Assembly: GCA_951406725.2 (NCBI GenBank)
Contig: OX597826.1
Coordinates: 14,756,001 to 14,820,000, forward strand
From: Octopus vulgaris
Taxonomy: Eukaryota
Direction of reading: 5' to 3'
DNA length: 64,000 bases
This document shows, piece by piece, positions 6,775 through 55,276 of this stretch (position 1 is its first letter; the number at the start of each line of letters is the position of its first letter). The translations under genes and the position numbers were made by a program. The notes under the pieces are model-generated. The model was not told the DNA's origin and did no database searches. It worked only from the letters and a program-made list of their open reading frames with translations.

Positions 6775-6955
6775 GCAAAAGATGAAGATGGGTATGTAAA
6801 CAACAAACAGATGTATTAGTTTAACGTTCGGGAAGTGTGAAAGTATTTTATGTTTCGAGCCTACGCTCTTCAACAGAAAAGAACACAGAAATATGCAGAG
6901 AGAGAAAATAAAAAAAAAAGTTTTCGTGGTTAGCGATCAATCATGGTGAATTCTA
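6772..6955 (-). mobile_element. Penelope-like pseudo-LTR unit (subfamily 1) inside (TA)n
   Basis: Homologous to 10512-10702 and to 53012-53090, which precedes a PLE RT remnant; flanked by TA tracts; carries a hammerhead-like motif. Confidence 0.7.
6846..6880 (-). ncRNA. Minimal hammerhead-ribozyme-like motif (degenerate)
   Basis: UUUU-CUGUUGA-A-GAGC(GUAG)GCUC-GAAAC-AUA-AAAU; A6>U change and decayed helix III. Confidence 0.5.
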
Positions 6956-10467: not shown

Positions 10468-10511
<44 letters not shown>

Positions 10512-10512
<1 letters not shown>

Positions 10513-10702
10513 GGGAGAGTTTACGAAAAAAACAAAAGATGAATACAGGTAGTGTACAAAACAAACAGATGTATTAGTATAACGCTCAGGAATAGAAAAA
10601 GTCTTTTACGTTTCGAGCCTACGCTCTTCTACAGAAAGGTACACAGAAAAAACAAGGAGAGAAACAAGGGAAGAAAAAATGTGTGTAGTGGCTAACGATC
10701 TA
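10512..10702 (-). mobile_element. Penelope-like pseudo-LTR unit (subfamily 1) inside (TA)n
   Basis: Homologous to 6772-6955 and 53012-53090. Confidence 0.7.
10603..10638 (-). ncRNA. Minimal type I hammerhead-like motif
   Basis: CUUU-CUGUAGA-A-GAGC(GUAG)GCUC-GAAAC-GUA^AAAG. Stem I CUUU/AAAG, palindromic ACGU helix III, A6>U variant. Confidence 0.6.
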
Positions 10703-10705
10703 TTA

Positions 10706-17071: not shown

Positions 17072-17281
17072 ATAGGTAATCCAAACATGAAAACACCAAG
17101 AGAAAACACAACAACGCGAGGACGTGGAACAAATGTAGTATTATTGGACGCTCAGGAAGGAAGGGAAGAAGGGGGCTTGTATGTTTCGAGCGGAGCTCTT
17201 CGTCGGAAACATAGGAAAAGGAAAGATCCAGAGAAGGGAAGACGGAGGGAAAAAATCGCCAACGGTACACACGCGGTCACA
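17072..17281 (-). mobile_element. Penelope-like pseudo-LTR unit (subfamily 2) between (TA)n and (TATG)n
   Basis: Close homologue of 49381-49557. Hammerhead motif GUUU-CCGACGA-A-GAGC(UCC)GCUC-GAAAC at 17183-17210; shares GTATTA..ACGCTCAGGAA with subfamily 1. Confidence 0.65.
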
Positions 17282-44858: not shown

Positions 44859-46900
44859 TAGATAAAACTTAGATATGTTTCGACCAGAGATTGGTCCAGG
44901 CCATGTCTAACTTAATAGCACCACCTGATAGGATTATTCGAATCCTGTTTAAGTCAAGTTTTGTTCAAGTAGTGAGTTCTTGTTGGGTGAGTTGTATCCA
45001 GTTTTGTTCAAGTAGTGAGTTCTTGTTGGGTGAGTTGTATCCAATTATGGGTGGCTTGTCTGGTATTCTTTGAAGGAATCTATCCAGACTCTGTTTGAAG
45101 TTGATGGGATCCTTTTCCTCTTTGATCTCCCTCGGGACAATGTTAAATAGGGCAGGGCCTGTTGAGGAAAAGAAATTATGTTGCAGTGTACATGTATGTT
45201 GTGATCTTGAATTTGGCAGGGGACGTATAGCCCGTGGTCCAAGTCTCGGATGAACCTTGAAGCTAATATTTAGGTCGTTTGGGCAAAGTTGGCGGTATAT
45301 TTTCCACATCGTACAAATGATGTACCGCTCACGGCGACGCTGGAGGGAGTAAAGTTTCAAGGCTTTAAGGCGATCCCAATAGTCGAGAGCAGCCATGCCT
45401 TCAATTTGTTTAGTGAGAGCCCTCTGGGGTGACTCAATTCTGGAGATGTTTTGTCTTGTGTGAGGAGACCACAGTGGGCAGCAGTATTCAAGGTGTGGCC
45501 GTACAAAGGATGAAAAAAGTGGTATGATGACACCTTGTTCTCTGGACCGGAAAGTTCTTAAGATCCAGGAACTCATCCTACGAGCTGTATCGACCTTCTT
45601 GTTGATGTGTGCACTCCAACTGAGATCGTCATCAACAATTACACCCAGGTCTCTGATATTGTTAGAGGCTGTGAGCGGTTCCCCTGAAGGAAGAGAGTAT
45701 GGTTGTTTTAGTGAGGAATTTCTTCCAAAATGCATCAGCTCAAATTTTCCCTCATTCAGTTGCATTTTGTTTCTGTCTGCCCATTGACTCACAGCATATA
45801 GGTCAGACTGGAGTTGAGTTCGGTCTGCTTCTTCATTGACGATTTGCTGGAGCTTAGTGTCATCAGCGAATATTTTCACTTTGCAGTGATGTACGACACT
45901 GGAAAGGTCGTTTACATAAATTATGAAGAGTAGCGGACCCAAAACAGTTCCCTGGGGAACACCGCTGGTGACTTTTGCTGGGTTTGAGTGGACTCCATCA
46001 ACTACAACATGTTGTGTTCTATTCGCTAGGAAATACTGAATCCAGTGTAGAACTTTTCCACGGATTCCAACATTTGCCAATTTTGAGAGTAGGATGTTAT
46101 GGTCTACCCTGTCGAACGCTTTACTGAAGTCAAGGTATATGACGTCAGAGTTCGAACCTGTTCCCAAGGCTTTGAGTACATCTTCAATGTGGTGTAAGAG
46201 CTGTGTTAGACAGTCCCTGCCACAGCGAAAGCCATGTTGATTTGAATTTAGGAGTTTGTGGGTCTCCAGGAAGTCAGCTATCCTTGATCTTAACACTCTT
46301 TCAAACACTTTAATGATGTGGGAGGTGAGTGAGATTGGGCGATAGTTGACTGCGAGGGATCTGTTTCCCTGTTTGAAAACCGGGATGACCGACTGGGATA
46401 GAAACTTTTTCGGTATATAACCTGCGTCTAACGAGTTTCTCCAGAGGTTGGTCAGAGGGACTGCAAGTTGATATCTACATTCCTTCAGGAGACTGGCGGG
46501 AAATCTATCAGGGCCTACAGCGGAGTAATGTTTGACCTCATTTATTGCTGCTACGATGTCGGTGGCAGTGAAGGTTATGTCTGCGATTTTGTGTTGGGAG
46601 TCAGCTTCGTTCGTTTCCCTCACATCAATATCAGTGGGAACACTGAAGACAGAGCAATATTGTTTCTGCAGTATTTCTGCCATTTCTTTAGCATCGTGTT
46701 GGGGAATGCCGTTTTCATCAATCAATGGCCCAATAGGTGAGACAGTGGTTCTATGCTTATTTGCATAAGAATAGAACACTTTTGGGTTCTGTTTGATGTT
46801 TTTGATTACCCATTGTTCCTCCACAGCTCTTTGATTTTCAATGGAGGTTTTCATGTTAGTCTGCAGATGAAGTTTTTCCAGCTCTAGTCTTTTCATTGTT
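44853..46900 (-). mobile_element. CR1/L2-type LINE, 5'-truncated, young
   Basis: RT ORF, short 3' UTR with a GACCA..TGGTC hairpin, and an (ATCTAAGTTT)x2 tail running into (TA)n. Confidence 0.92.
44965..46896 (-). CDS. LINE ORF2 reverse transcriptase (endonuclease domain missing), 643 open codons
   Basis: NPKVFYSY, GPD, NYRPISLTS, QHGF, YLDFSKAFDRV, SGVPQGTVLGPLLF, FADD, RDLGV, RPHLEYC, LQRRRER; no stops. Confidence 0.9.
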   Translation of the reverse strand: MKRLELEKLHLQTNMKTSIENQRAVEEQWVIKNIKQNPKVFYSYANKHRTTVSPIGPLIDENGIPQHDAKEMAEILQKQYCSVFSVPTDIDVRETNEADSQHKIADITFTATDIVAAINEVKHYSAVGPDRFPASLLKECRYQLAVPLTNLWRNSLDAGYIPKKFLSQSVIPVFKQGNRSLAVNYRPISLTSHIIKVFERVLRSRIADFLETHKLLNSNQHGFRCGRDCLTQLLHHIEDVLKALGTGSNSDVIYLDFSKAFDRVDHNILLSKLANVGIRGKVLHWIQYFLANRTQHVVVDGVHSNPAKVTSGVPQGTVLGPLLFIIYVNDLSSVVHHCKVKIFADDTKLQQIVNEEADRTQLQSDLYAVSQWADRNKMQLNEGKFELMHFGRNSSLKQPYSLPSGEPLTASNNIRDLGVIVDDDLSWSAHINKKVDTARRMSSWILRTFRSREQGVIIPLFSSFVRPHLEYCCPLWSPHTRQNISRIESPQRALTKQIEGMAALDYWDRLKALKLYSLQRRRERYIICTMWKIYRQLCPNDLNISFKVHPRLGPRAIRPLPNSRSQHTCTLQHNFFSSTGPALFNIVPREIKEEKDPINFKQSLDRFLQRIPDKPPIIGYNSPNKNSLLEQNWIQLTQQELTT

Positions 46901-47199
46901 GTTGAATGTGGATGTTGCGTGTGATATATATATAGTTCATTTGGGATAACTATTAAGGAACGTCTCTGGAAAACTTGAAATTCGCCTACCACTATTTTTC
47001 TTTTCGTCGTAACTTTTTTTGTTCTCTCCAAATTAATTCTCTTTTATCTGTTTACCTTATTCTTCTTATTTTGTTACAAATATAATAAATACGAAAGACG
47101 AGTGACCCAAAATTTATGTACAATAGTTTCTGTTCTTACCATTTTTTTAATGCAATTTCCGACAACCACTTCTCATCTACCAGTGGGACTAGTGCTTTA

Positions 47200-49385: not shown

Positions 49386-49557
49386 TAATCCAAACAAGAA
49401 AACACAAAAAAACACAACAACGCGAGGACGTGGAACAAATATAGTATTATTGGACGCTCAGGAAAGAAGGAAAGAAGGAGGGTTTAACGTTTCGAGCGGA
49501 GCTCTTCGGCAGAAACATAGGAAAAGGAAAGATCCAAAGAAGGGAAGACGGAGGAAA
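49381..49557 (-). mobile_element. Penelope-like pseudo-LTR unit (subfamily 2) next to (TA)n
   Basis: Homologue of 17072-17281. Confidence 0.65.
49482..49516 (-). ncRNA. Minimal type I hammerhead-like motif
   Basis: GUUU-CUGCCGA-A-GAGC(UCC)GCUC-GAAAC-GUU^AAAC. Combined with the 17183 copy (CCGACGA), the inferred ancestor is canonical CUGACGA. Confidence 0.6.
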
Positions 49558-51299: not shown

Positions 51300-51883
51300 T
51301 ACCGGGTGCAATGGGTAAATTGTCGCTGCTTTGGTTTTGATTTTTGTCGACTACTCAGCATAGTAGGGTCAGAGGGGCACCATCTGTAATAAAAACAGCA
51401 TCATGACGCAATTCACTCTGCCAGAAATTTGAAAATAACATGCTGTGCTGCCAGGTATTCACGCTGAAAGCTCCAATACGAACATTTCAGAGTGTTTGGC
51501 TGTCAGTCTGAGTACAGTGCAGAGGATTCGGAAAGAGTTGGGTGAGTCTAATGGTGATTACGATGGTACGTCAGCTTGGAAAACTCACTCTGGTCGTTGT
51601 GATAAGAAAATAACTCTTGAATTTGTTGGCGTGATCCAGGCCATGATCGACAACGTTCCCTCCAAGTCAATTAGGTCCTTCGCCTGGGACATGGGAGTGT
51701 CTGAGCTTTGTACCAGGCAGGGAGTGTATGAAGACATTCGGTATTCTTCATACATGATGAGGAAAAATCGCGCGACGAAGCTTTTAAACAAACTCAAGCA
51801 TCCCATCCAAACGAAAAATTTTCTGCCATTATCAGATAGTGAACACACAGAACAAGCGTTTGCTTGCCGTGTTCCCAAAACAT
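51300..51883 (+). mobile_element. Tc1/mariner-superfamily (maT-like) transposon 5' fragment
   Basis: TA-CCGGGTG TIR start; HTH-region translation ISECLAVSLSTVQRIRKEL..IQAMIDNVPSKSIRSFAWDMGVSE..VYEDIRYSSY..RATKLLNKLKH; internal deletions. Confidence 0.8.
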
Positions 51884-51950: not shown

Positions 51951-51990
<40 letters not shown>

Positions 51991-52059
51991 GCTCGGTAAC
52001 AACGCCGTTAAATGGAGTCGGGACTGCCTTATATACAAATAAATACGATAAATGCTTAT

Positions 52060-52470
52060 GCAGGGAAAAATTAAGATGTCCTTTGATGAATCTCTGTACG
52101 AGTACAGATCTTGTATATAAGTTCACGCAAGGGGAGGGACGTATGTTTACATCGGGCAGACGGCTGATTCATTTAAGAATTGTTATTGTAACCATGTTGC
52201 CAGCTTTAAAACAATCAATAAGAGACATACAACATCGTTGGCAGATTTTGTATGGCGAGTGAAGGAAGATCAAATGAAGTACAGCAGAACTTGGTCCATA
52301 GTAAGGTACGTGAAACCATACAATATAATTACCAGAAGATGTCTCTGCTCTGATGAATCCCTGTCTATTCTGTGACTAACGAGAAGATCATTAACATAAT
52401 TTTTGAAGAATTCTCGAGATGCCTACACGCATATAAATGTACTTTCACAAAATGCAGTGAGAATGAATTT
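52060..52470 (+). pseudogene. PLE GIY-YIG endonuclease remnant
   Basis: CP..LVYK..YVYIGQTADSFKNCYCNHVASFK..TTSLADFVWRVKE..WSIV..KPYN..RRC..C..E..IN..E..RCLHAYK. Confidence 0.8.
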
Positions 52471-53011
52471 TGAGTAACCGTTAATATAATTTAATTTACT
52501 TTAAGGTATGGATGACTTATGTTTACTTTTTACCTCCCCATTCTTACAAACACCAAGTAGATAGTTAACTCGCTTTGTGATCAGGAGTTAACCAAACCTC
52601 CCGTATGCGTATGTTCACTTTTTTGTGGATGCTTGTATGAGCGAATGAACTCGTGCCATGCAGCTTGCCTGACGGCGTTTATTCATCCATATCTGTTAAC
52701 GGTTATTTTTAATACTTTTCTCGCTGGATTGCGTGTTCGGTTAAATTTTTGCCATCTGTGATTTTGTTTTTGATCTTCTATATAAATGAAGATATTTCCT
52801 CCGTCTAGCTGCTTTCCTTTCTACAACGCGAGAAGTTACTTTAACGAGTTGTATTTATTTATCACCCGACGAGATACATATGCACTGTCGGATGCTCATG
52901 AAACAGTTGCTGAGTGTTCTACCCATGAGGGATCGATGCTAGATGTGTCGAAACACTTGTCCTGATTAATGATGAATTCTCGTATTTTCCATCTTCCGGC
53001 TGTCATTTGCC

Positions 53012-54615
53012 AAAAGACTTTCTCCCTTCCCGAGCGTTAAACATCTGTTAATTGTTTAGACACCCGTCTTCGTCTTTTTTTAAATTCTTACTATATATTA
53101 CACACTCACGTGGTCGCACCAGTTTTATCCTGTCTCCACCTCCAATTTGAACTTTTCTTGGATTATTCTACCTGGATTCTCTACCTGGATTTTCTTCTAC
53201 TCTCCTACACCTGGACTCCTACACTTCGTCCGCACCTCTCCTACCCATGGACTCTTACTTTAATGAGAAATTGCTCCAATACTCCACGACGTTTGAACCT
53301 TTTGAACTTTTCTAAACTTTTTTGTACTTTCTGCTTTTTCCTATTGTCGTTTCTCTCAATCCGCACTTGTTACCTTGCCTCTCTCTCTCTCCCTCCCTTT
53401 CTTTTTCCCTTTTGTCTTACCTTCTCCCTTTCTTCCCTTTTCTCTTTGTTTATTCCTTCTTCCTTCTTTCTCTCCTTGATTTTATTTTTTCTCCTCACCC
53501 CATTTGCATTTTTTCTCCCCACACCTTTCGAATTTTTCCTCCTCACGTCTTTATTGCCCTTCTCTCTCCCCCTCTTTTTTCCTTTCTTCTTTCTCTCTTC
53601 TCGTTTTTCAATCATGCCCCATTACAAACCTTTCCTCCTCCACCTTCACTACCGCCTAAAAAAACCACATTTCAACACTTCCTTTCCGCTGCTTTCAACC
53701 TTCTATTAACCTTTCCCTACTAATTTTTTTAAAAAAACACGCTTCTGTAGCAGTCGCTGCCATCATCACCGCTTCATCCCTAAAAGTTTCCTCCATTTCC
53801 ACCCCACTCTCCACTCTGCTTCAACCATCCTACACATACTCCGCATTACATCCTATCGCCTTATGCGCGTCACCATTCATTCTAATCTCTCCAAAATACA
53901 TGCCATCGACCGCCTTCTCCCTCTGCCTTTTTCCTTCTTCTCTTCTCAGTTGCCCTTCCATGCTAACACTACGTTACATAATTCGTTTAAATCATCTCTT
54001 TCATCTTCTCGCTCACACCAAACAACCTAATCTCCACTCACTCCTCCATTCCATCATACCCGATGCCACTACCCCTCATCTCCTCTCCTACCCTTCTCCC
54101 TCCCTGATACGCCGGTTTGACTTTTCCAAGCGTCCCCGACATCTGAATATCTCCCCTGCTGAACTCTCGGCCCTTCAATGTCTCCGACGCCGCACGTACC
54201 TCATCATTATGCCGGCCGATAAGGGTGGAGCCGTGGTGGTGTGACGCGCAGACCTCCTACAAGGCGGGTGCTCTCCACTAACTTCAAGACACCTCCTTCT
54301 TCTGCCCTCTGCCCCCTCACCATACGCCCAGCTATTAACAGACGGTGTCCTCTCCTATTCATAACCTCCTCTCGTCTCCCGCCACCACCTGTAACCTCAA
54401 TGTCTGCGCCGCTCACACTCCCACAATTTACTTCCTCACAAAATCCCCAAACCTTAAAACCCTGGCCCCCGTCCGCCTGCAACTGCTCCACCGAACTCAT
54501 CTCTAGATATCTTGACCGTGTCCTTGCCCCCTAGTGGCTTCCCTCCCCTCTCACATCCATAACACCAACCATGTTCTTCGTTTGTTCAACTTTTTCTCCT
54601 TCCCTCTCTCCCCTA
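53012..54615 (+). mobile_element. PLE 5' portion: pLTR plus decayed RT N-terminus
   Basis: 53012-53090 is subfamily-1 pLTR sequence. It is followed by a pyrimidine-rich leader, then NISPAELSALQCLRRRTYLIIMPADKGGAVVV*R, FYFLTKSPN (PKIHK-like) and ACNCSTELISRYLDRVLAPLVASLPSHIHNTNHVL. Confidence 0.88.
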
Positions 54616-55276
54616 ATCACAGTTCAATTATATATAAGTCACTTCATGTCCCATCGGTTCAGAAAGACGAAATCCCGTCTGGAATGGACGGCTGGATTGT
54701 AAAAATTAATTCAAATGTCTGTGTTATGAGCGTGAGCGTAAATTATTCAATCTTAGATCAATTACAATTAAAAAAAACAACAAAAACATTTTAACGGACG
54801 ATACAATCAAGTAAATTCGATCCACAACCATCGAAATTCACTTCATTATATCTCAGACATATACCAATTGAAACCCTTTTATGGCCAAGATAGTCTCTTG
54901 TTATCACAACATACAATAATAATATATGTGTGTATATAAATGTATTAAGTATCTAAGTCTTCTCCTACGTGTAACTACAGCAAAAACTATATAAACAATT
55001 GTATCTTCAATACAACAACTCATTTATCTATTTAAATTAGTTGGTAAAAAAAATGGTTTGTATCGATGTTTTCTGTCGATTCACTATAATTGAACTGTGA
55101 TTATGTATATCAGAACAATATATCTAAGTCCAAAACAATTTCTTGGACTTTTACGATTTATATAATTATTTATTTAATATAATGTTATATATTATATTCA
55201 TAGTATTTAATGTAATAATGTAATATAAATAAATTATTGAATGTCAATAGATCATCTCTATATTTAACTTACCTTT

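Follow-up and report, generated by a model that had tools for sequence, protein, structure and literature searches.

Our results indicate that a Penelope-like element (PLE) family of the octopus, here family A, is likely to have been copied from uncut RNA, and that the copy beginning at position 53012 of the window is probably an ordinary 5'-truncated Neptune-type PLE whose end happens, likely by chance, to lie near the predicted hammerhead cut. The insertions of this family have a fixed 3' end, almost all read through the hammerhead, their 5' ends accumulate at a sharp wall, and TA microhomology is seen at junctions. The window is the whole stretch analysed, 64,000 nt of Octopus vulgaris (GCA_951406725.2, OX597826.1:14,756,001-14,820,000, forward strand), and positions in the family are numbered relative to the predicted hammerhead cut, the first base after the cut being +1. 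The features of the window that concern us are listed here:

51990-53011, plus strand: remnant of a family B PLE, preceded by (TA)n, with a GIY-YIG-like frame and an end repeat of its own, stopping at B's canonical 3' end, 53011
52862-52965, plus strand: hammerhead-like motif (type I) of family B, predicted to cut after 52961; its core is CCGACGA (U4C), its stem II long and its stem III palindromic
53012-53093, plus strand: only the downstream half of an end repeat of family A (Neptune-type PLE), starting at -1 (A17) and running to the usual 3' terminus, about +82 here
53094-54606, plus strand: body of the family A copy, comprising its 5' region and an N-terminal RT part that is broken (PADKGG near 54215)
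10511-10703, minus strand: mini-unit of family A lying in (TA)n; it begins near -91, and its U6 hammerhead spans 10603-10638
6776-6951, minus strand: family A mini-unit starting at the -101 boundary, entire U6 hammerhead kept
17150-17260 (approximate), minus strand: sister-family hammerhead unit, at 17191, A6 kept, C4
49450-49570 (approximate), minus strand: sister-family hammerhead unit, at 49497, C6 in that copy

The cut was placed on the minus-strand unit at 10603-10638, which has a minimal type I layout with a 4-bp helix I, the core CUGUAGA, a palindromic CG and UA before the cut. Reading along this unit, C3 is 10634 and U6 is 10631, followed by a bulged A, a 4-bp stem II, GAAA at 10614-10611, CGU and A17 at 10607, so that the layout read from the sequence predicts cleavage between 10607 and 10606. 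In alignment, 53012 pairs with 10607 and with 6849, which is position -1 of the hammerhead. The first-pass annotation had stated that the PLE starts within 1 nt of the predicted cut and lacks the upstream half of the ribozyme, and both statements hold, as 53012 is the base just 5' of the cut and no upstream half precedes it. From there the copy carries broken RT sequence, with its PADKGG motif near 54215, and extends to 54606, where it diverges from most of 19 other copies, which go on into the RT core; the following 54607-54640 (plus strand) holds about 20 letters that we could not assign and then a short ATATATA, so that the copy may have jumped to a 3' terminus here or have been broken later. 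Because it has stops, frameshifts and a break inside the RT, before the RT catalytic motifs, the window copy is not autonomous. An Rfam search of the window gave no ribozyme match, and a Pfam search of the window's PLE fragments gave no matches. Elsewhere in the window, a LINE-type element that has nothing to do with the family A boundary occupies 44965-47043 (minus strand), as an open frame of 692 codons in which an RVT_1 domain is recognised (E 5e-32).

By its motifs and domain features, family A is a Neptune-type PLE. A PLE-type RT core with a DKG motif can be followed by eye through broken frames, as PADKGG in the window and as GTRMGP and YIDD in copies L133, L134, L149 and L150, and CSRPRCRTC, a CX4CxxC linker, is followed by a GIY-YIG domain in L134, L044, L048 and L150; the window copy, broken off, has neither. 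With loose patterns, the 3' terminal motif was recognised in 68 of 70 family A copies, with a TA-type repeat next in 57, and the 3' end has a fixed place in (TA)n, about 85-90 nt past the cut. The DKG motif, the RT, the CX4CxxC linker, the C-terminal GIY-YIG domain and the (TA)n targets are described for the Neptune clade of EN+ PLEs (PMC8557442), and family A shares with that clade this order of domains, its targets and a hammerhead in the end repeat. It differs in having U6 in its hammerhead core by consensus and in that every translated copy is broken, with no intact ORF among them, and its placement is by motifs and not by a tree. Copies with RT, linker and GIY-YIG lie upstream of the same end repeat as the mini-units, and the mini-units therefore belong to a coding element; the link once proposed between the mini-units and an autonomous PLE is thus borne out as regards a coding Neptune-type element, but not as regards the window copy itself. 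Many family A copies, such as L002, L003, L005, L011, L012, L026 and L028, measure 400-600 nt and have a repeat-body-repeat structure; the point at which the body passes into the end repeat varies from copy to copy, through internal deletions or template jumps. A non-LTR retrozyme was considered and rejected, as family A units are dispersed singles or partial tandems whose ends are not at the cut.

The first-pass annotation had read the boundary at 53012 as that of an insertion reverse-transcribed from a self-cleaved RNA, and as a sign of an active U6 core, and it looked to a sharp peak of 5' ends at GUA^AAAG in support. No such peak was found. We took an unselected sample of 70 of the first 71 copies listed among 649 exact matches to an anchor at +27, and 65 of these 70 extend at least 20 nt upstream of the cut, one stops at -3 and four stop downstream. 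Genome-wide, copies were filtered with the 30-mer starting at +1 (723 copies) and then with its first 29 letters and a non-A at -6 (23 matches), which alignment scoring and then inspection by eye divided into 8 true 5' ends, 2 internal deletions (L159 and L163) and 13 intact copies, the last two groups being left out. The matched control of the same design was loop II, 13 nt upstream of the cut, which has the same CGTA letters; it gave 11 true ends among 47 matches, out of 1104 copies (1.0%), once L175, L185 and L188, in which homology extends further upstream, and 33 intact copies had been left out. The cut window (-5 to +1), with 8 ends in about 723 copies (1.1%, CI 0.5-2.2%), is thus no richer in ends than the control (Fisher p = 0.82; p = 0.65 if L163 is counted), the odds ratio being 1.1 with a rough interval, worked out by hand, of 0.45-2.8. 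Against a downstream control with 2-4 ends in at least 687 copies (L229 and L256, which extend further upstream, left out; L221 and L230 ambiguous), the cut window is 2-4 times higher (p = 0.11-0.39). An end that has A at -6 as well as at -1 escapes these filters. For exact starts at +1, the complementary filter, a non-A at -1, returned 48 matches; judging from the listed letters, at least 45 of them have an intact motif with a point change at position 17, and at most one resembles a junction.

In seven of the eight cut-window ends, the cut is still preceded by TA, GTA or CGTA, and control ends show the like. This is the microhomology expected for (TA)n targets, and microhomology joints have been described for PLEs (PMC3846280). 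Among 56 distinct body-bearing copies, the class to which the window copy belongs, in a set that includes matches found with the window copy as query and in which a few rows are deletions or duplicates, the 5' ends range from -201 to +175, and only the window copy and L028, which starts at +2, lie within 2 nt of the cut (2/56, near the background rate). Such a scatter is what the first-pass annotation had named as the outcome that would refute its reading. The coincidence at 53012 is therefore real but ordinary, no more than the chance rate provides, although a small share of the insertions may come from cleaved templates. RNA-seq depth in three raw runs, linked to this genome by species label only and possibly from another individual or species, peaks across the cut without a pile-up of ends, which in fragmented RNA is a weak test; the reads are equal on both strands and are mostly read-through of dispersed copies.

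The true sharp 5' boundary of the family is at -101/-102, about 100 nt upstream of the cut. When 173 copies reaching -20 were pooled, 57 ended in -102 to -91 and only 3 in -103 to -121. Genome-wide, the 26-mer starting at -101 is present in 694 copies, of which 250 lack the upstream letters, 344 read through and 100 are unclassified, that is, at least 250 of the 694 copies reaching the wall begin at -101/-102, against 38 ends at the control position -94. True ends with unrelated flanks were confirmed in 29 of 30 fetched wall copies, most of which keep the whole hammerhead, and the window unit at 6776-6951 (minus strand) begins at -101, exactly at the wall. Since the wall lies upstream of an intact hammerhead, it points to a linear, uncut template.

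The wall is probably caused by transcription that starts at an internal promoter, as it does in Drosophila Penelope. In D. virilis, the Penelope start and internal promoter lie inside the pseudo-LTR (Schostak et al. 2008, PMC2377424), the position that family A would share, whereas the family A start is read from insertion ends. We regard it as less likely, but as a serious candidate, that RNA processing, stopping of the RT or the ends of a few non-autonomous master copies produced the wall instead. Of the first 100 wall junctions listed, 44 take in C-102, although transcripts usually start with a purine, and a cap-templated G is lacking: G stands before -101 in 9/100 wall copies against 3/38 at the control (p = 1), and the cap-G signal hinted at by 5/11 in a small sample was accordingly dropped. 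Moreover, a single subfamily (G7/U17) accounts for many of these copies, and the peak could be exaggerated if a short non-autonomous master was amplified. However, the wall is used by both subfamilies, with unrelated flanks, and by the more distant relative L087; only a weak local hairpin is predicted there, an Rfam search at the wall returned no ribozyme, and any of these origins would still require uncut hammerheads. Downstream of the wall, the family A repeat from -78 to -20 (for example 10626-10690 of the window, minus strand) holds a branch-point-like motif and a long pyrimidine tract, with the first AG inside the hammerhead core. Either a 3' splice site like that of Drosophila Penelope or mere base composition could account for this; no splice donor or spliced read was found for this tract, in RNA-seq reads that exclude the upstream part.

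Up to 53011, the left flank of the copy is the exact canonical 3' end of a second Penelope-like family, family B, which the earlier annotation had missed. In the best 30 of 40 scored B copies, the base matching 53011 is the end in 23 of the 29 others, the remaining 6 carrying a common tail, and an A follows B's end in 24 of 29. Because the junction is B's canonical 3' end and A comes next so often, position 53012 could be the last base of B or the first of family A. B's own predicted cut lies 50 nt upstream of its fixed 3' end, to which 6/29 copies add an optional tail of about 80 nt, so the junction is not an RNA cut end. The B hammerhead layout is common to about 23 of 30 copies; its helix II holds an insert of 65 nt, and U4C is the state of the core across the family, B being mostly C4. 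Only a broken endonuclease frame is present, for which Pfam gave no match; the family may resemble a Hydra clade PLE (GIY-YIG without CCHH, DKT motif, CxCX5C linker, (TA)n targets). Directly left of the (TA)n that precedes B, 51439-51880 (plus strand) is a transposase-like remnant that may resemble Tc1/mariner.

It is tempting to ask whether B alone made the junction, by inserting into an intact family A hammerhead, or whether a later deletion took away the upstream half, in which case 53012 would not be a family A 5' end at all. The junction is exactly B's canonical 3' end, a (TA)n remainder is absent and the junction is single in the genome, all of which would suit such an event. Yet the missing hammerhead half was sought left of B at 51990 and was not found, the sequence there being (TA)n and the transposase remnant, so this reading needs an extra deletion and we hold it to be improbable. 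Two chimeras were also discarded: a recurrent B|A chimera, as the junction has 1 match genome-wide (controls 1 and 1), and an RNA-ligation chimera, as the B side is a 3' insertion end 50 nt downstream of B's predicted cut. The simplest history of the locus would be that a family A copy was truncated at the TA beside the cut and that B inserted later at the edge of the (TA)n tract, so that B's standard 3' end abuts the truncated copy. Less simply, A may have landed behind B, which is the arrangement in L087, or B may have entered A and a deletion have followed.

U6 is the family A consensus. It is present in 56/57 and 115/122 copies (about 94%), in both subfamilies, which rules out decay of single copies, and an alternative core register, on inspection, breaks helix II. 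Family A thereby departs from the canonical CUGANGA core with A6, which related families keep, while the remaining minimal type I features (helices I and II, a bulge after A9, GAAA, palindromic helix III and NUH) are present. The subfamilies, C7/A17 and G7/U17, differ within the motif only at the tolerant positions 7 and 17. The sister hammerhead family has at least 12,189 exact matches; among the first 100 listed, 98 carry A6 and 74 carry C4. Each of the three abundant families examined here has a core change expected to slow cutting. As in the minimal type I hammerheads of metazoan PLEs (Cervera and de la Pena 2014, PMC4209133), family A has an extra nucleotide between A9 and G10.1, a G10.1-C11.1 pair, palindromic 15.2-16.2 without a loop III, a short helix I and mostly single dispersed copies; unlike them, it has A6U in about 94% of copies and a 4-bp helix II, and the cleave-and-circularise cycle proposed there leaves no mark on family A 5' ends. 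Searches of the open literature for A6U or octopus PLE hammerheads listed no account of this variant, as far as main texts go; the alignments of PMC4209133 could hold one, and hammerheads are not mentioned in PMC13282606.

The least probable reading, and a very unlikely one, is that an active U6 hammerhead cut its own RNA and that reverse transcription of the cut RNA gave the 53012 insertion, the extra A coming from B's flank: the start within 1 nt of the cut (exactly +1 if the A is B's), L174 with a start exactly at +1, and subfamily differences confined to tolerant positions, a hint of kept function, are outweighed by the missing genome-wide excess at the cut, the 5' ends of body-bearing copies scattered at near background rate around it, the strongly lowered activity of natural A6C hammerheads in Mg2+ (PMC3088659, PMC7151607), the poor cleavage by minimal PLE hammerheads (PMC4209133) and an MFE fold of three monomers that is no better than shuffles (z 0.73), in itself uninformative. 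The claim that the boundary signals an active U6 core is thus left unsupported.

Copying from uncut RNA could proceed as follows. Transcription would start inside the end repeat, at about -102, from an internal promoter, and RT would initiate internally at about +88, downstream of the hammerhead, primed on nicked (TA)n. Running off the 5' end of the uncut RNA would yield the mini-units of about 190 nt, earlier RT stops would be joined to the target by TA microhomology, and transcripts begun further upstream would give the longer copies. Poseidon_Ac of the green anole (Frangieh et al. 2024, PMC11167929) is similar in its internal RT start downstream of the hammerhead, its sharp 3' end and its uncut RNA template: there, the substrate is mainly uncut RNA, mutation of the hammerhead leaves insertion normal, and reads ending at the cut are absent. 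It differs in belonging to another clade and in being in vitro work, and the parts of that report available to us describe no genomic 5' wall upstream of the hammerhead. Going further, we could speculate, tentatively, that the genome preserves the RNA template of a Neptune element to the single base, in that a capped transcript from the internal -102 start is copied from +88 through a hammerhead that is detuned (A6U) yet folded, as other abundant families may be detuned too (U4C), and that weak or protein-gated cutting lets the elements spread and spawn self-transcribed, SINE-like units of about 190 nt.

The role of the hammerhead in PLEs is an open question, and family A offers a genome-scale count of what has happened in vivo: cut RNA supplied at most a few percent of its insertions. 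This count backs the in vitro result from the anole and argues against an obligatory cleave-and-circularise cycle in family A. In addition, the family yields a candidate start site at base precision and a natural, high-copy A6U core.
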